The position numbers and the translations under genes are program-made. DNA of 47,722 nt, counting the filler, from Catajapyx aquilonaris (lineage: Eukaryota), in assembly GCA_000934665.2 (NCBI GenBank). It is 2 parts of 2 records of this genome, joined end to end, with 100 filler letters (N's around TTAATTAATTAA, not from the genome) between each part and the next. Parts side by side here need not be neighbours in the genome. Positions count along the whole stretch, not along the records: positions 1 to 23,823 come from KZ539386.1; 1 more part is not named here. One strand, 5' to 3'. This document shows positions 1,266 to 46,660 of this stretch, in pieces (the first letter of the stretch is position 1; each line of letters begins with the position of its first letter). A model generated the notes under the pieces. It did no database searches. It was given only the letters and a program-made list of their open reading frames with translations, and was not told the DNA's origin.

Positions 1266-1887
1266 TCCTAGGTGATTTTGGCCCTTTAGTTGAGACAAAG
1301 GCGTTACAGCTTTGAATCGAGCTACTGTAATTTAGTAATAAAACGTCAAGTATAAGCTCATGCCATCTACCTTAGGCTCAGAATGATATTGGCTACCCCA
1401 CGTAAAGTGGTAAAATACAAAACTTGACTATCATGAAAGTATGGAGGTTGTAAAGCAAATTGCACTATTACACTTTTGGTTACTGGCCCTGAATGGTGTG
1501 TTCCTTGAATTTAAAATAAGAAGAGAGATCACAAGTACTTATTTTTCGCCATTCGTAATATAGCGAACACTTTACAAGGCAATATGTATGATAGAGTAAG
1601 CCATTTTTTTTGTTTCGAAAATAATAACTGCAGTCATTTTGGCGGTCAAGTTTGTAGTTTCAGTAAGCGAAATAACTTGTTTGACTGATCTACTGTCTGC
1701 AAGGTGCTACCACAGTGATCACGTCGAATAAATTCTACAGGCTAGAATAAGGAATGAAAGCTCTAAGCTGCTGGTTGTGGGAATTCAATTTGATGATGAG
1801 AGTCAATAATGATTTGTAGCTGTCTCCCTGGATAAAGCACATTTAATGAATGGTTTACAATTTCAGGCGTGTGCCAATCCAGGCAGG

Positions 1888-2646
1888 ATGCAGGCAGTAG
1901 GCCTCCACTCTGCTCTGGCCATCCGGAGGGAGAGGAAGAGGCGGAGGGCGGCACAACAACAACGTGAGAGGCGTTACAGCAGCCAATCCGTCGGTCCCGG
2001 TGGATCTTTAACTCCTCGAGGCAGCATCACCAGCACAGATGGCCGCACTAGGCTGGACGGAAAAAAGGGCAAAAGCATCCTGGGCACCAAAGTCATGGGC
2101 AACATCACCATGCTGCACATTGGGGTCGTCTTCATCGTCCTCGGTCTATTCTTTATTGTATCAAGCACGATCCCAGGATACGTCAATCCTAACGACTGGG
2201 AAGATCTGCTGGGGATTGGCGTCTTCTTCTTTCTGTGCGGATTCTTCCTGGTCGTCATCAACCGGATGATCACCAAAAAAGAGGACGAACTGTTGTTCCA
2301 GGATGTGCAGAACAAGCTTTCCCGGTCGCGGTCGGGGCACAGAATCATGCCCCGGGATATAGAAACGGGCAAGCTGAGTCCTGCCAAGGAGACACCGACG
2401 CCCACGAAGAAGGTGACAGAGGACACCTTATCTCCTGAAACTAACTACTATGATGCGATCAACAGCCCCGTTCCCAACGGAGATGCACACCTGGATAAAA
2501 TTGTTGAGGAATGCGAGCCGGAGCCAACCGAAAATGGGAAGGTCCATGGCCCTGCCTACGATAGTCAAGAATCCACTAGTCTAAGTCCCAGCAGCCCTTC
2601 GGAGACAAAGGGCCTGTTGCATTCCAAGAATACCAGCAGGGTTTGA
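1888..2646 (+). CDS. Uncharacterised two-transmembrane protein, 252 aa (paralog 1), single coding exon
   Basis: Long GC-richer ORF; TTTCAG acceptor at 1861-1866 just before ATG 1888; basic N-terminal helix, two hydrophobic segments (MLHIGVVFIVLGLFFIVSS; LLGIGVFFFLCGFFLVVI), Ser/Pro/Glu-rich tail ending -SRV. Confidence 0.9.
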   Translation: MQAVGLHSALAIRRERKRRRAAQQQRERRYSSQSVGPGGSLTPRGSITSTDGRTRLDGKKGKSILGTKVMGNITMLHIGVVFIVLGLFFIVSSTIPGYVNPNDWEDLLGIGVFFFLCGFFLVVINRMITKKEDELLFQDVQNKLSRSRSGHRIMPRDIETGKLSPAKETPTPTKKVTEDTLSPETNYYDAINSPVPNGDAHLDKIVEECEPEPTENGKVHGPAYDSQESTSLSPSSPSETKGLLHSKNTSRV

Positions 2647-5600
2647 ACCCCCGTCTGTCGAGCACATACTTGGTATCGTACACCAACTAAAGAATTTTCT
2701 CCCAAATGATTGGTGCTGGAGACTCGTAACAGACTGAACAAGAGATTTCAGAAAATGAAAGCAAAAAACCAAACGAAAATTAACGAGTTTTACTCTTGTA
2801 TTTTTCAATGTTACACTCTGTACTGGTTGTACCAGGCTACAGGATCATCCAAGCTGCTGGTGATTATTTGATTTCAAACACAGTGGTACAGAATGCCAAA
2901 GTACCAACCAGTGACGCAGACTTGAATGAATCAAGCATGTTGGCTTGGGCCTTAACGGCACACCAACAAGTGCGCTGTCACATAGAGGCAGGCAGGGTCT
3001 AGTGGGCTCTAATGATATACGCCCAATTTGTGTTGAGCCAGTTGCATGTTCTGGAAAAGGTACTGCGATAATGTTTCTCCATTTTGAATGCTTGTCAACT
3101 TGTAGGATGATTAGTGTCATTCGTACGTGATTTTGTGCCTCTGCCCCTTGTTATTATTTTGCCATTATAATACGCCTTTGACTCAGAGTGTTTTTTCCAA
3201 TAAGGCGCATGATTACATTTCAATTGACGCCACATCCTCGGGGCTGCATTTAGAATGGCTCTGCCTCACCTGTTTGCACTTGCACATGTCAACTGCTTGT
3301 GTGTTAAGGAATCACCTTCAGCCCGAGTGACCCTTTAGTTTGCTACACACCGTCTTATTGCTTCATTTTTCAGGGTAATTTTAAAACCTGGGATGTTGTT
3401 AACGTAAATTTGCTTCATTATTCAGCCGTGCTTTTAATATAAGTACTCATGTTGTTTTATTACTCTGTTTGTTGTTGACAAGTGACTCGCGCTGATAATG
3501 ACTCTTGCGAACCCATACCGCACATCAAAAAAGGCCTTCTATCGTTTTTGGAGACTTGTTTGTCCCTTTTAAAGCAACCATAATGATAACTATTTTTGAT
3601 TGCCGTTTTAGAAATAAATCTATTGAAACTCACTTCTATTGCCATTTACCACAGTTCAAATAGAAGTAATTAATTAATATTTGGAAGGTATTGCTTAATT
3701 GTGGATGTACATTATGTCGTAATTCGTTGCACTGTGTTCCATTGTATTTTCTCACTTTTCTAACTGAAGGTCAAAATAGACCGGCAGAGTTTAGCACGGT
3801 ATAGAGATTAATTTACTTTGTTACTATTTGGGACCGATATTACAATGGACGAGTCGTGGCCATACGAACAAAATTAGTATCGTTATCTACAGTATAATTA
3901 TTATAATGTACTTTGCATGGTTCGTCAGATAACAATTTGATGCATATTCTGACCAGGTAAGCTTACTGAATTCATATATAAGTATTTATAGAAGGCCTAC
4001 GTGGAGCTACCAAACTGGAAGCTTAAGAGTAACTTGAGGAACTTAAGAATATGCTTGTGGATTTAATTCATTACGGACGTTACCGGTATGTCAAATACAA
4101 TCTGTATAGCCACTCCACAAAATACTAGAATCATCTAAATCCTGGAATATTTATTTCGAGTACCGGTACTTGAAAATTACGAAAACCAATTATTATTGCA
4201 AAGTTAATGAGAAAAGGTCGGCCTCATTTTTTTACTTTTATATTTTGTAGAGCTGTCAATACATTAGCTTGCAAAAGGCATGTCAATTTCCGGCAGAATA
4301 TTCTGATGTTGAACTAGAACTAATTTACAACTGCACCCTGCGGCATATATTCTAAAATAAAGACTGGCCAATTAACATATACGACAGCATAACGTACTGT
4401 GTGACAATGTCCTCTGTAGTTAGTATACTCAATTGAAAGGTCATCAAAGCCGGTTAATTTCATGAATGCGTGTGAAATATTTCCAGGAAAATGAAAGAAG
4501 TTACTCTCTCAATGAAGCGTCTGGGTTGACGGCAGATTTTATTGCGCAATCTCAGTAAAGCAATGGCTTATTTTCACTCAAGACAGGTCAATATTATTGC
4601 ACCTTTCTCATGTCGGTGGTTATTTCAAAAGAAGTATTGCGTCTTCACATGTAACACAGTAGTAGTCATGCATTTTGACATGGCGAATTGGCATCTGGCA
4701 ATTCTAAGGTAACTGCGTGTAACTGATTATTATACAGTATAATAACATTCAGGCACATAATACATCATACGTAAACAGATATTGAACAACTTATATTATT
4801 GTCGCGAGAATTTGTACTCAATATCCCGCTTAAATGTCTTGAATGCACACACACAGTCAGTATATACAGTATACTGTAAACCTATATGGAGAGAACTGAA
4901 TCATGATGATTGGAGCCCCTTAATTCAGCCTCAACTTTTGTAACGTGAGACTTTTTCTTGCCTCCCGTTAGTTTAAAAATGCTGTTGTAGACCTACTGAA
5001 TGAAAGAAAAAGTAGTTTTTACGAACATCAGCATTTCTGAGTAAAGAGGAGAGCTTCTCTCAGGTGAAAAAATCAGGTGTCCGAAAAAATAGAGGGTATC
5101 TTTTGACAGATGCTTGATGGCAGCGCAGTAGGCTGTGATAAAATAATGACGGAGAGGGAAGGTGCTAAACTTCTGCCTGAAGCTTGTTCACTGTGAACTC
5201 AAGTGTGTGAAAATTATTGTACGTGTTGCACTAACGAGAAGTGAAAAACAGCACCACAATTGCTGAAGCTCACACGCTAGTACCTTAACATATAAAACTA
5301 TAGACTGACGCAAAATCTGCTGTGTGCATAGGAGAAAAAATAGAAAAAATATTGAAAACAATACATTGGAAGAAAGCTGTAATGTGGCAAGGAGTAGGCA
5401 ACATTCCCATTTTCTCTTACGTATAATATATTCTGCTTGGAAGGATTCTTGTTTCATGAGTCTATCGCAAGTGCATATTATTGTGACGGTTCTCGCTGCT
5501 CCTTTAGAAGGCAAAAGAGTCAACTATATAGCCGTGAAACCTTATCATGTAGATGTGGAATAATTTTTAGGCGCGTTTAATGTTTCATATTATGTGGTTA

Positions 5601-7026
5601 ATTCCACCGATACAAAATATCTCATAATATTAATTGATTCACTTTGCCCACAATATAAAGAGGACCTTTGTATGCCATATAAAAATCTCATGCCAATGTG
5701 TATAGGCAACTCATAGATGAACACAGAATATTGATGATCTTTTTACATTACACATCATATCTCTCGCACCTTAAGTTTGGCACAATATATGAAGAAGAAA
5801 CCGGAATCGACGAGACGAAAACTTGAGAAACGACGCGCGGAACTCAGTGATTCCGTCGCATTGCAATTTATACACAGTACTATGTCTTTTACTTTAATGA
5901 AATTGGTTGTTTAAATGTAGAGCATAAATCAACCCATAGAACCGATAGCGAAGGACCTTTTCAAAGAGTTTTTCACTTTTGTCACGACGCGACGATGTAA
6001 TTTCAGTTGTTGTGCCACATGTGAAAATGTATGTTGTTTTGTATTGCCGGTTTTTTCAACATATGGACAGATGTCCTGTTGTACTATTATAACATGCTGA
6101 CCAATGTAGCTTTTACTGACTAGATATATTTTATGTCGTTCAGAGAATGTTTCGTTCAAGTTCATGGGAGGTCACCTGCAACCTATGATCTATATGTCGC
6201 AGTGGCTCTCAGAAAGACGGTGGAAAGTGAAGTGGAACAAAAAAATCAACGTTTCCATCATGTATAACTCAACATGTATAAATATAGCCTACTACTTCGC
6301 ATGTTATTTCTAGTGTAATAGCAAAACGTATATAGTACTATACGAGTATCATAATTATTATGTCCTTTGGTGATATTATTTCATATTAAAATGTCAGTGC
6401 TTATTGATTTGTTTGCATAATTTGTACTGAATATATATTGATATATCCAAAGAACTACATACTGTTTATGTGCAGTACACTGACTTGCGAGTATACCGGG
6501 AGGGAAGCAGGACCGGAAGAGGTGAAGATGGTTTTCAAAGTGGGAATATTGAAACAATATTCACATTTCAATAATGCCATTTGCAAACACTTTCACCGTG
6601 CTGGACCAGATGTTGCATCACATCCTGTGCAAGCAAGTGCACGTGTACATTATGGTGCTTGAAAAGTAATATATTCATTCATATTTTTGCTCCCTTCCTT
6701 TCCTCACTTGCATCCAAATCACTTGTCGGAACCATAGCCATTCTCCTAGCTTGACTGCCTTCGGATGCTAGCAGAATATTTCACCTTACTCTCATTATGC
6801 TTATCAATGGCCTTTCATTTACACATTTCTCCTCGTATTCAACTCGACAGTAATGTTACAACGATGAGGGTTACTTTTCAAGACGTACTGTTTCACCATT
6901 TCATCGATTCCGCAAAGTTCCAAAGCGTTCACATTGTTAACATACATGTACACATTGCTTGGATAGCATTATAATACAGTATTATGAACATGTCACTTGC
7001 AACAAGTGGAATGAAATGGTTGGGGT

Positions 7027-7100
7027 GGTCCCATGGTGTAACGGTAGCACACTGGACTCGTCCAAGTCCAGTGGTCCGAGTTCGAATCTCGGTGGGACCT
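7027..7100 (+). tRNA. tRNA-Gln-derived tRNA-like RNA with a non-canonical anticodon arm and no readable anticodon
   Basis: Acceptor GGTCCCA/TGGGACC plus T discriminator, D stem GTGT/GCAC, T stem CCGAG/CTCGG with TTCGAAT loop; anticodon arm ACTGGACT-CGTCCA-AGTCCAGT. Confidence 0.8.
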
Positions 7101-7771
7101 TCGACCTCTCTGTGTCTTTCAATCTTCATGCTCTAATATCGAGATACGTATTTCGTGTGAAGCAAACGTTCTATATAAAGGAAAAGTTGCGTCGCTTCTC
7201 TTCAGTACTTCCATTTTTGTAGGCAAAAGTGATATTAGATTATTTAAATGGTGTTACACTACAGTCGACAATGTTTATTGTACATAAACATGTTGTGTTC
7301 CATTGTTATCCCGTCACCGTCCATAAACATTCACATCAAAACAGAACATCCCTCCCCCATTCTTATTCATTAATATTCATTAATTCATTATTTTCAGAAT
7401 CGTGTTCATATTTTGATTTTAATGATTTATACATCATGCTCCATTGCGACACACTTTTTAGCAGGGAATTCTACGAGGAGAAATTTGTATATGAATCAGC
7501 TGCTGTACACTTCTGTGGCGTAGTTTTGTTGACTGTATATAATGTATAAATGCCTACCTGTCGACATTCCTTTTCTTACTTTTGTATCTTCAACTGTCGT
7601 CCAATAAATATTCTGTCTTATCTAACCTCAAGCACTGTTTATGTTGTTACAACCGAGGTGAGGGCCACTCACTGAAAAAATGTACACATGGATTACTGGT
7701 AAACATTCATTACTCACATATGCCAGGTAATAATACCTTTGTGTTCCTGATTACCTTCTGCTACTCTTCAC

Positions 7772-7927
7772 TGGTGTACTATGGAGCTCAAATTGTTCTG
7801 GCCACTTTATCCTGGTCTTGAAGCAACCCTTCGCACAGGCCCCATGGTGAGCAAGTGTGTCTGTGTGAAGGGTTGCTTCAAGACCTGGATAAAGTGGCCA
7901 AAACGATTTGAGCCCCATAGTACATCA
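7772..7927. repeat. Long hairpin / palindromic MITE-like element
   Basis: About 70-bp arms (GGCCACTTTATCCTGGTCTTGAAGCAACCCTTC and its near-exact reverse complement) around a short spacer. Confidence 0.8.
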
Positions 7928-8047
7928 CGGTGTAGTGGATGTACATTACAGTATATTATCGGATTTACTACCCCGCCCCATTCTAGATGACCTTTAGACG
8001 CCAAACATTGCTTTTCAGATAGTTTTCCTGCAATACACCGTCTATGA

Positions 8048-8288
8048 CAGGGCTTCCAAACTGAGGGAGGGTAACAAAGTATTTTTACAAAATTATTCTA
8101 TCTCTCTGGAAACATACGGTATGCCCGTAAATGACAAGATGAGTTAATTTATAGTTATACTATTGTCATTGACTACCCCTGAGGGGGGGGGGGGGGGGGN
8201 GGGGGGTAGGGTTGAATCGAAAATTAGGGGTCGCGAATTTTACGAGACGATTTTCTGGGGTCGCCAACGAAAAAAAGGGCAAGCATTG
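8048..8288. mobile_element. hAT-type MITE (same family as 1030-1265)
   Basis: CAGGGCTTCC...GCAAGCATTG ends; 8-bp TSD GTCTATGA on both sides. Confidence 0.85.
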
Positions 8289-9107: not shown

Positions 9108-9698
9108 ATTTTCCTTATTTTCTCGACTACACTACGATGTGACTTTTTTTTCTTTCAATTTTATAGTAGCCTAATGTTAGCTTCCATATTGACTCCCATT
9201 GTACCATGTAACTTTGGTCCCGCTAAAAAATCGGAATGTCACATCACTCATCCCGTCAGGGTGTCTCACTTATATGAGCTTACAAGTTAGTGCAAATGAA
9301 GTTATCCTTGAAAAAGGCGGTAACTGCCAAAGTGGTGTTGTGAGAAAATTCAAGTTGCTGTTTGAATTTGACTTACTCATTAAGGCATGAATTTTCAGTG
9401 GAGTTAATTAGTAAATAATTCTACTAATTATTGTTTGTTGTCATAATTATGTAATCTAAATCTTAAAGCGCACATCGTCCGAATTAGCTACTCAAGCTAC
9501 ATATTATGCACTTATGAAAACAATGATGGAGACGGTCCTTGGATGTGCCATGTGGGAGTAGTGGCCGTCATTTTTGCTGCATGTCAAGGTTTCAATTGCA
9601 AGATGGGCCACACTATTAAGGTTCAGCATGATACTAAATCATCACCTTGCACAAATCAACTTCAATTCTCAGAGACAACTGTTGCAGCCATAGTCAAG

Positions 9699-9956
9699 AT
9701 GATCGGAGCGATGCAAGCAGTAGCTCTTCGCCATGAGCGCAAGAAGCAAGAGTCAAAGACGCGACCTCTTAACCAGCGCCCCAGCCATCTTCACCTCCCC
9801 ATCGGTGGTATAAAGGGCAACAATAATTCTGCTTCAACAATGGGATTGCCCGGAAGCAGCCCTCGTTCGCCTGGGAGTCCTGGGAGCCGAGGGCCCAGTA
9901 GGCCTGGCAGCCCTGGTAGCTTGACTGGCCATCACAGCCCCACGCACACTCCACAG
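9699..9956 (+). CDS. Two-transmembrane protein paralog 2, coding exon 1 (MIGAMQAVALRHERKK...HTPQ)
   Basis: TTCTCAG acceptor ending 9672, ATG 9699, CAG|GTCAGA phase-0 donor; N-terminal motif shared with paralog 1; GSPGS repeats. Confidence 0.85.
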
Positions 9957-10154
9957 GTCAGAACCTTACCCCTCATCTACATGAAAAAAATGATGATTCG
10001 TTATAGCCTAGTTAGTTTTATTCTTACTGCTTCAAGGCCGGAAGACAATGTCTCTATGTTTCTCAGTGAACATCATTTTCTCGCGATTGATAATGATATA
10101 CTATGCTGTAGAACTGCGTACATGTACTGCATCTTACTTATAAGTCAGTATAAT

Positions 10155-11915: not shown

Positions 11916-12453
11916 AGAGATTACTCTTAGTTCTTTATAAAACCATTTAGAACAATAAGTTTGTAACTCGATTTTAATGCAAAGGGAGAGGGTACAATTT
12001 TTCACTGACGTCAAAGTCTCTAATTCCAAATAAGTTATTTATAAATTAATACAAAATAATATACAGTTACACCCTGAACCAATAATAAATTTGAAAATAA
12101 ATCATTTTGCACCGGTATGTACAGGTCATAATACAATAAGACAAGTGTAGGCCTACCTCATCTCGTAGCCTACAAGAACATATCATGATTGACAGGTTAG
12201 GGTTAGCATTTAGGGGGCTATCCATGGTAGGCTTCTTCTGATAGGCCTACTCATGAGATGCAAAGATAATACCAATATGGTGACGTAACACGCGAGAAAT
12301 TAGGCCTACAATTATGTATGTTAGTAAAAACTATATAGTACCATATAGTTGCCAAACTGATGTGGAGACTTGATCGACGGAGTAAAAGTAGTGTTGTAAG
12401 ACTATCCGCTACTGTTTCTTTACTGATAGTAGGACTACAATCTTGCCTTTCAG

Positions 12454-13023
12454 AATGCAAACAAAGGAAGCCTGAGCAGCAACCGAGGAAGAGGTCGCAA
12501 GAAGCGCGGGGTGTTCATCTTAGGAAAGAACGCCATCTTGTATTTGATCGTGATCTTGATGCTTCTGGGAATAATCATCCTGATCGTAGGTCTGGTACAA
12601 CTGAAGCCGGGCGCTGACGCAAATGGACACAAATTCTACATCATCTCGGCCGGATGCTTCTTAATCGGAATTGGAGTCATAATGACTGGGGCTAGATGTT
12701 GCTGCTATCCGGATATCCGAATCCGGAAAACGAGGTCCGGTCAGCATCACATGAAACGAGAACCCGACTCCAGCCTCTCTATGGCTGCTGCTCATCAGCA
12801 TGACGAGAAATTGGCTGCCCAAAATGGTGGCTCTCTGAATAAAAGACAGGATGAGGTGGTGCATGAGCCATCTGGGCCAGATTCCCCTACCCACCAGCCA
12901 AAGGTAGACTCCAACAATGGAGCCTTGCCGCTAACTGGAGGGCTCACACCTCTCAAGTCACCGTCCGAACATGACGCTCTCATCCAGGCTCCGACATCTC
13001 CCGTTGACAATAATCACAGTTAG
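12454..13023 (+). CDS. Two-transmembrane protein paralog 2, coding exon 2 (spliced product 275 aa)
   Basis: Polypyrimidine TCTTGCCTTTCAG acceptor; phase 0, in frame with exon 1; two TM segments (AILYLIVILMLLGIIILIVGLV; FYIISAGCFLIGIGVIMTGA) followed by CCC. Confidence 0.9.
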   Translation, partial: NANKGSLSSNRGRGRKKRGVFILGKNAILYLIVILMLLGIIILIVGLVQLKPGADANGHKFYIISAGCFLIGIGVIMTGARCCCYPDIRIRKTRSGQHHMKREPDSSLSMAAAHQHDEKLAAQNGGSLNKRQDEVVHEPSGPDSPTHQPKVDSNNGALPLTGGLTPLKSPSEHDALIQAPTSPVDNNHS

Positions 13024-45316: not shown

Positions 45317-46660
45317 CCCTTTAATTGATAATGTCCCTCCTGAGGGACATTCAATTTCAAAAATTTTTAACGGGCCCGCCAGAAAGAAAGTGCGCGAAAA
45401 TGGATGCCCATCATCTGACACCGAACCTCGACTAACTCACATGTGTACTTCGCCATCTGTTGGGAAAAGCTTGCACCAGAAAAACACAAGAGAAATCCAA
45501 CATGGCGGCCGCTTCAGAAGCGGTTGCCTCGCAGCCGGTAAGAAACTCTTTTTTTAAAATTGCCGTAACATGGTTTTGAGAGACATGAAATTAGCTCCAG
45601 TGAGTGCATGAAGCATGTGATCAGACCAGCCTCTCAGTTCTCTCATAAAACTAATATTACGATCGTAATAGTTGGCTATTAACCTATGTACCCCAGGAGG
45701 GACATTGCCAATTCAAGGGTGATTTATGATTTCAGTTTGTGCACTGGAAGTTCTACCTTTGAAGGAGTAGATTTCTCAGAAGAGGAAGAGCAGATGGGTG
45801 TTGGAGGAAAGGTTGTGGTGCAGCAATGTAAAACGATTGATGATAGGAAGGAGACTGTGGTGTATTTTGATAATTTCTTTTGCAGTCTAGAACTGATCAT
45901 GTACCTCAAAGACAATTTGGACTTGCACAGCCTGGGAACACTGAGAGAGAATCGTCTGAGGGGGTGTGAGCTAATGTCTCTAAAGGATATGAAAAAAGAA
46001 GGGAGGGGAGCGATTTGATTACAAAGTTGATAATGCTGCAGGAATTGCCGTAGTAAAATGGCTGTACAGCAAGGCTGTTCTCCTAGTAAGTTCATGCTCA
46101 TCAGTTGAGCCCTGGGATATTGCAAAAAGGTGAAAAAAGGGTTCCAAGTTAACTGCCCAAATGTGGTAAGGGAGTATAAGTGTATATAACACATGGGTGG
46201 CGTAGATTCGGCCGACATGTTGGTGGCACTCTACAGAACTCGACTTAAAACACGAAGGTGGTACTTGACCATTTTTGCGCAGATGATAGATGTGGCAGTC
46301 ATTAACGGGCGGTTGTTGTACCGCAGAGACATGGCACTTCTAGGTAGGAGGAAAGCAGTAAGCCTGAAGGAATTCCGCATGGATGTTGGTAATGCTTTGA
46401 TTCAGTCAGGGAAGCCTAAAAGAGGTAGACCATCCCCTCAGCATACTCAGCCATCAAAAAAATAAAGACACCCACTTTTCCAAGACCAGGCTGTGACATC
46501 TGATATGATGGGATTGGCCATTTCCCTATTGTTGGGGTGAAGGGAAGATGCAGGCTGTGCAGTTCGGGAAAAACAAAAGTAATGTGCCAAAAGTGTGACT
46601 TGCGATTGTGTTTACTGGAAAACGGGAACTGTTTTTTTTTCATTTCCATAACAAGCAGTG
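45317..46660 (+). mobile_element. Internally deleted, decayed piggyBac transposon (PGBD2/3-like transposase remnant at about 45720-46660)
   Basis: TTAA-CCCTTT left end; YFDNFF, LGTLRENRLRGC, HMGGVDSAD, RWY and a C-terminal Cys-rich domain (CRLC...CQKC.L.LC...CF..FH); frameshifts and stops. Confidence 0.9.

Follow-up and report, generated by a model that had tools for sequence, protein, structure and literature searches.

The genome of the arthropod Catajapyx aquilonaris contains at least 32 dispersed copies of an element with the body of a tRNA-Gln, and covariation among the copies indicates that this body is under selection for RNA structure. The copies are mostly intronic and lie sense to every host gene recognised. 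We propose, at a probability of roughly 0.45, that they act in cis as substrates of RNase P and RNase Z within Pol II transcripts, cleavage being a putative step. One copy lies on the plus strand at 7027-7100 of the window, a stretch of 47,722 nucleotides made of two joined parts of the genome. Its anticodon loop is non-decoding, and no Pol III terminator is close by. The element and its flanks comprise the following features.

7027..7100, + strand: non-decoding cloverleaf derived from tRNA-Gln, family member (sequence, ARAGORN and Rfam; family model 89.3 bits, the copy being a training sequence)
7051..7072, + strand: anticodon arm (7051-7058/7065-7072), stretched to 8 bp with a 6-nt loop at 7059-7064, copy-specific (sequence and loop survey)
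7007..7026, + strand: 5' leader, predicted 5' strand of a stalk in which 7022-7026 pairs with 7104-7108 (predicted folds and a family-level permutation test)
7101..7121, + strand: 3' trailer, predicted to form the 3' strand of the stalk and to leave 7100-7103 unpaired at the junction (predicted folds)
7214..7218, + strand: first run of four or more T (T4), at an offset of 113 nt from the element (sequence; family distances of such runs equal background)

An earlier note on this DNA had described the acceptor, D and T stems as fully paired and the A and B boxes as intact. This holds: the acceptor (7027-7033/7093-7099) has 7/7 pairs, the D stem 4/4, including the U13-G22 pair of tRNA-Gln, and the T stem 5/5. 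The 8-bp anticodon arm with its 6-nt loop and the distant T run, placed by the note about 114 nt downstream, were found where it had put them; counted on a standard 5-bp stem, the loop is 10 nt. The proposed check of score and type against covariance models returned RF00005 (59.4 bits, E 2e-10), and ARAGORN labels the copy tRNA-???, its anticodon being unassignable. The folding z-score is -3.39, with 0 of 200 shuffles equally stable, and the minimum-energy fold differs from the full cloverleaf. The note's claim that all changes fall in unpaired positions stands when the copy is compared with the genome's own decoding tRNA-Gln genes (L009 type): they differ in the D loop, the anticodon loop and at positions 26, 44, 46 and 57, and in no stem. 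An extra pair between 26 and 44 recurs, A26 being present in all four family-alignment copies with T44 (the window copy, L056, L064 and L067). In a second sample, from another study, the element is found on a contig with 0 differences, which excludes an assembly error. A decoding tRNA-Gln would combine an intact cloverleaf and A and B boxes, all present here, with a 7-nt loop bearing a Gln anticodon and a Pol III terminator within about 20 nt. The window copy has a 10-nt loop and its first T run at 113 nt, and none of the 29 family loops is that of a tRNA-Gln. The window element is real and selected, and its function is a candidate reading.

The family set consists of 29 fully parsed copies (tRNA-Gln body, non-Gln loop) and three irregular ones (L050, L052 and L055), counts that are lower bounds from one DNA search of the species' own genome and three patterns. 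Four rows with an intact anticodon (L057-L060) were removed from the family and kept as controls. Across the 29 aligned copies, 98.4% of 609 stem cells are paired, against 33-47% in slid controls. Two-sided changes occur in nine of the 21 stem pairs. These values were reached by 0 of 500 column shuffles, with the caveat that related copies may outscore such shuffles without any structure. The acceptor is the most variable helix, with two-sided change in six of its seven pairs, and single copies, L074 and L079, each have a fully compensated acceptor stem. Pairing in the 5-bp anticodon stem is 99.3%. The search patterns require a good T arm and so inflate its conservation, but they barely touch the acceptor stem, which holds most of the covariation. 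T54, T55, C56 and A58 are invariant, U73 is present in 21 of the 29 copies, and the body differs from nuclear tRNA-Gln at a mean of 7.6 of 57 core positions.

The loops behave differently. Stem substitutions relative to decoding tRNA-Gln amount to 6.4% per site, whereas the nine 7-nt loops diverge by 57%, about nine times as much. Among the 29 loops 28 are distinct, lengths range from 6 to 15 nt and are altered in 20, and only two of the nine 7-nt loops keep both U33 and a purine at 37. The selected, non-decoding body suggested by the earlier note is backed by this covariation, the test that the note itself had named. The 8-bp, 6-nt hairpin is ruled out as a conserved feature, 28 of the 29 loops being different; that of the window copy appears incidental, and the rest of the L shape is what seems to stay. 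In L052 (4968-5070) a pyrimidine run has enlarged the anticodon loop to about 38 nt with the body still paired; a guide-RNA role for the loops was judged unlikely, given that one of them is such an expansion.

Host genes were identified with a symmetric test, in which the 150 longest ORFs per strand within 2.5 kb of 31 copies were matched to Pfam (E<=1e-4, transposases left out). It took over from noisy self-trained coding scores and a set of 90 hand-picked ORFs, the choice of which could favour the sense strand. A sense match was found at 13 of the 31 loci and an antisense match at none (binomial p=2.4e-4); the other 18 loci had no qualifying match, and two weaker antisense matches fell under the cut-offs. 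Among the hosts are genes for a ubiquitin hydrolase, a Polycomb protein, an LRR protein, a rhomboid, an Ig-domain protein, STT3, a receptor guanylyl cyclase, a MIF4G protein, an ion channel, a chitinase, HR3 and a PHD protein; myosin, a PRDM gene and a weak Ig match came from the hand-picked scan. At 18 control loci with an intact anticodon, three neighbours were sense and two antisense; against this small control the family's 13 to 0 is not significant alone (Fisher p=0.065). Parts of one domain flank the element on both sides at L062, L066, L071, L072 and L074, which places it in an intron at these five loci. With splice sites read by eye, the distance is 62-223 nt to a 5' splice site (11 loci) or 119-178 nt to a 3' splice site (six loci), a nearness biased by our having found hosts through exons close by.

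Several loci deserve separate mention. An HR3 exon shares 72-74% identity with mayfly, silverfish and termite proteins and 70-71% with those of Daphnia. One 65-kb contig (G000:C910) holds three members on both strands (L074, L053 and L066), each sense to its own gene (chitinase, LRR protein and guanylyl cyclase). Possible 3' UTR copies are L053:4966-5038 and L054:4970-5040, with sense coding exons upstream and two AATAAA motifs within 320 nt downstream. In 30 of the 31 ten-kb copy loci, L080 being the exception, no other Rfam family reached gathering level, and no snoRNA or miRNA partner was found there.

A second family of tRNA mimics, built on another body, is represented by 22 genomic matches (L104-L125). 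Its acceptor and T stems are paired, its anticodon arms are variable, and its median distance to a T4 run is 148 nt. Pfam matches were obtained at 10 of the 22 loci, all of them sense, in nine host genes (one match weak): POP1, CP2, Smad MH2, SV2, HMG box, RUN, acyl transferase, PAN and a claudin-like gene. The orientation result is repeated here on separate data. The POP1 contig (G000:C1694, L082-L084) has seven tRNA-like matches in 40 kb, all on the minus strand, which is that of POP1_N.

Both families appear to stand on a stalk. In the 29 tRNA-Gln-bodied copies, the 22 nt of a copy's own leader hybridise with the 22 nt of its own trailer at -11.3 kcal/mol, compared with -7.9 across loci (0 of 10,000 permutations, p<1e-4). 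The corresponding values for the second family are -10.3 and -7.7 (0 of 10,000, p<1e-4), in a set of which four of the 22 loci come from the POP1 contig, two of these being near duplicates. In the tRNA-Gln-bodied family the signal is not significant past the first 22 nt (p=0.82 and 0.51). It is also uneven there: the own trailers of several copies come low in the ranking of the 29, and that of the window copy comes ninth. A weak flank consensus common to the family copies suggests an ancestral stalk that may have diverged later, copy by copy. In predicted folds the longest junction run is continuous in five of 29 copies, offset in 13 and absent (no run of three pairs) in 11; the window copy has five pairs beyond four unpaired 3' bases. 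Where a bulge is predicted, it is in most cases 3' or an internal loop, in contrast to the 5' A of MALAT1; A-1 is able to pair with U73 in many copies.

The window copy probably belongs to a long 3' UTR, the evidence for which comes from one study (run X5) of unrecorded kind that we take to be RNA.

1867..2646, + strand: coding exon for an uncharacterised protein in which two membrane stretches are predicted; its gene is the likely host (homology; X5 contig)
2647..7626, + strand: inferred 3' UTR of about 5 kb, with the element about 0.5 kb before its end (separate X5 contigs over much of the range)
7603..7608, + strand: AATAAA, likely distal poly(A) signal (X5 contig end at 7626; one study, inferred)

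Identity of the upstream protein to insect proteins is about 35-47%, one 83% match apart. The X5 contig fits from the AG at 1865-1866, a splice acceptor, its first 72 letters lying off the window. Further X5 pieces cover 3062 to 6926. They are followed by one contig, from 6932 to 7626, that runs through the uncut element, extends 95 nt upstream and 526 nt downstream of it, and ends 18 nt past the AATAAA. The 3' UTR position is likely; in this one study the coding sequence and the element are on separate contigs. With X5 taken as RNA, at least some molecules stay uncut; contigs cannot show ends or levels. No X5 cover was found over a second membrane-protein ORF (12433-13023) or over 9118-10019, which carries no weight. 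The two flanking membrane-protein ORFs, called paralogs in the earlier note, remain unproven as such, as pairwise BLASTP is not significant (E=0.24). An Rfam scan of 2600-8200 at E<=1 returned RF00005 alone, besides weak hairpin matches at 7801-7898.

Among the options that the earlier note had offered, a processing signal within a longer plus-strand transcript fits best with the sense bias and the contig cover. The element would be read as a cis signal within a Pol II host RNA. The nascent RNA would fold into a cloverleaf on a short stalk, recognised through its elbow and the 12-bp acceptor/T helix, and RNase P and then RNase Z would cut a share of the transcripts. At the window copy, some of the mRNAs would lose their distal 3' UTR and poly(A) tail to the cut; at intronic copies, host output would fall or change in timing, and a small tRNA-like RNA would be freed. 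We rank RNase P and RNase Z first because the features kept in the family are those that these enzymes measure, because the anticodon loop, to which both enzymes are indifferent, is free, because the stalk has a precedent, and because copies crowd at POP1, the gene for an RNase P subunit. Other data argue against them. The sole RNA-like data (X5) show the element uncut. The invariant D- and T-loop bases double as A and B boxes and are thus not specific evidence for RNase P. The anticodon stem is kept beyond what RNase P needs, which is less than a full 5-bp stem, and there is no ENE or A-rich tract to shield a cut 3' end. Human nimtRNAs that retain a cloverleaf are, in the available text of PMC7722341, reported as unprocessed.

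In a wider and more tentative form, which we consider less likely to hold than to fail, two or more families of stalked, anticodon-free cloverleafs in introns and 3' UTRs of dozens of coding genes would be cut by RNase P and RNase Z to attenuate their hosts, and the cluster at POP1 would be a feedback loop setting RNase P activity. HR3, myosin heavy chain, Polycomb, an ion channel, chitinase, STT3 and Smad- and CP2-type factors would, equally tentatively, be among the genes of such a genome-wide regulatory layer in this arthropod lineage. POP1 would be its built-in candidate for autoregulation, on the model of Drosha, which cuts DGCR8 mRNA.

The main rival, which our analysis makes somewhat improbable, is an uncut cis platform, in which the stalked tRNA shape would bind a protein (a splicing factor, tRNA-modifying enzyme or transport factor) and tune host splicing, stability or localisation. 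The sense placement, covariation and stalk fit it equally well, and it would agree with the uncut X5 contig, with the possible A-1/U73 pairing and with the nearness to splice sites, although the way hosts were found biases the last of these. A copy in a 3' UTR is unfit for a pure splicing role, the hosts here are all sense whereas nimtRNAs are reported active in both orientations (PMC7722341, available text), and the crowding at POP1 points to RNase P. A product acting in trans, with introns and UTRs as Pol II carriers as for snoRNAs and with the freed RNAs serving, for example, as binders or decoys of glutaminyl-tRNA synthetase, is doubtful. It has a tRNA-Gln body with U73 in most copies on its side, and precedents in GUT15, where a Pol II intron gives rise to a tRNA-like RNA with a CCA tail (PMC6152437), and in mascRNA, which according to a review binds glutaminyl-tRNA synthetase (PMC10424219). 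The second family has the same layout on another body, and the hosts are mixed, unlike typical highly expressed carriers. The acceptor stem and the anticodon, in which Gln identity resides, are the most variable helix and the part that was lost.

There are two further explanations. In one, the copies would be Pol III units in their own right or DNA sites for TFIIIC (non-decoding tRNA genes or insulators), in genes by chance; this would explain the intact A and B boxes, and co-directional placement could avert polymerase collisions. We judge it unlikely. The median distance to a T4 run is 80 nt in the family, close to the 90 nt from random flank positions, versus 8 nt for 17 intact-anticodon tRNA-Gln copies (p=4e-6). 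Such a run within about 20 nt is found at six of the 29 family copies, equal to the 17% background, versus 16 of the 17 intact-anticodon copies. The stand-alone Pol III gene considered in the earlier note is not backed by these distances, and a DNA element needs neither compensatory acceptor pairs nor a copy-specific stalk. Least probable of all are neutral tRNA pseudogenes or simple-SINE relics, with the loop of the window copy arising from a single slippage event. Slippage is able to explain that loop, the copies are dispersed with a weak shared flank consensus, the patterns inflate T-arm conservation, and a decayed tRNA-Gln-like copy with a broken T arm (35 bits) does occur at L078:5250-5323, some 210 nt after an intact member that shares its intron. 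Against this stand the excess of loop over stem divergence, the full acceptor compensation in single copies and the all-sense hosts of two families. The many dispersed copies that the earlier note took as the mark of a SINE head do exist, but without the marks: the flanks of the 29 copies share no alignable sequence, with neither a common SINE body nor a common tail, flanking direct repeats are at chance (5.14 versus 5.04 nt), and an A-run is present in one of 29. Old copies may have lost a shared tail, poly(A) or target-site duplication; dispersed copies without SINE marks strengthen the case for the element.

Among known systems, the family is in its working most like mascRNA or GUT15, and it is a member of neither, nor is it a nimtRNA, a decoding tRNA or a recognisable SINE. 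mascRNA and menRNA (from MALAT1 and NEAT1) resemble the window copy in having a non-decoding tRNA-like fold in a Pol II transcript, with a leader-trailer helix beneath the acceptor stem, about 0.4-0.5 kb before a poly(A) signal; in MALAT1 RNase P releases mascRNA more readily when this helix has a bulge, and less well when the stem is continuous (PMC8457004). Leader-trailer complementarity is significant in our family, with a predicted junction geometry that is varied, unlike that of MALAT1. The hosts here are protein-coding, the copies number in the tens, are mostly intronic and have a full tRNA-Gln body, and cleavage is putative. At the window copy the Rfam model of mascRNA/menRNA gave no match, RF00005 alone reaching gathering level; there is no ENE or A-rich tract before 7027, and the upstream gene is protein-coding rather than a lncRNA. 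The mascRNA-like nature suggested by the earlier note survives as a processing signal, the best fit, and fails as a true mascRNA.

GUT15 of Arabidopsis shares with the family a tRNA-like sequence in an intron of a Pol II host; its tRNA-like RNA depends on host Pol II transcription and reportedly gains CCA and inhibits splicing of its own intron (PMC6152437). Sense position in a Pol II transcript is likewise seen in our copies with domain parts on both sides and, through its inferred 3' UTR, in the window copy. In the available text of that source GUT15 corresponds to one or two plant lncRNA loci, compared with two dispersed families in animal coding genes here, with putative processing. Human nimtRNAs also have many intronic copies with changes that are in loops or compensatory, but are of mitochondrial origin in NUMTs, in both orientations and reported as unprocessed (PMC7722341, available text). 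The family has a nuclear tRNA origin, sense placement in all hosts found and its own stalk, and the flanks are unrelated between copies, with no sign of a NUMT. Decoding tRNA-Gln genes (RF00005), tRNA pseudogenes and simple SINEs share its body sequence, A and B boxes and dispersal; it differs from them in that its loop is not constrained to 7 nt, it has no terminator, tail or target-site duplication, and its stems appear selected while its loops drift.

Two metagenome scans for relatives gave 0 matches and four matches, the latter all ordinary tRNA-Gln, and one viral scan gave 0; these collections are poor in arthropod DNA, so the zeros are no sign of absence. No description of such families in arthropods was found in the literature searched, which covered few subscription papers. 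Known tRNA-like signals of Pol II transcripts are those of a few lncRNAs (MALAT1, NEAT1 and GUT15) and of mitochondrial inserts. If our reading is true, and ordinary genes of an animal contain more than 50 selected, sense mimics of nuclear tRNAs, then the enzymes of tRNA processing, or another reader of the tRNA shape, would be general regulators of mRNAs. The family also bears on whether the "undetermined" tRNA pseudogenes of animal genomes can be functional cis elements.

Three minor observations complete the survey. Another unusual tRNA-like gene lies at L077:702-771; its body is unrelated (Rfam 53 bits), and the next T4 run is 114 nt away. In the window, positions 7772-7927 hold an inverted repeat of 67 nt with 91% complementarity; its DNA depth in run X1 is very high, it gives weak miRNA-model matches, and it is likely a MITE. 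Transposase fragments (Pfam DDE_Tnp_1_7) in two frames are found at 45683-46465.
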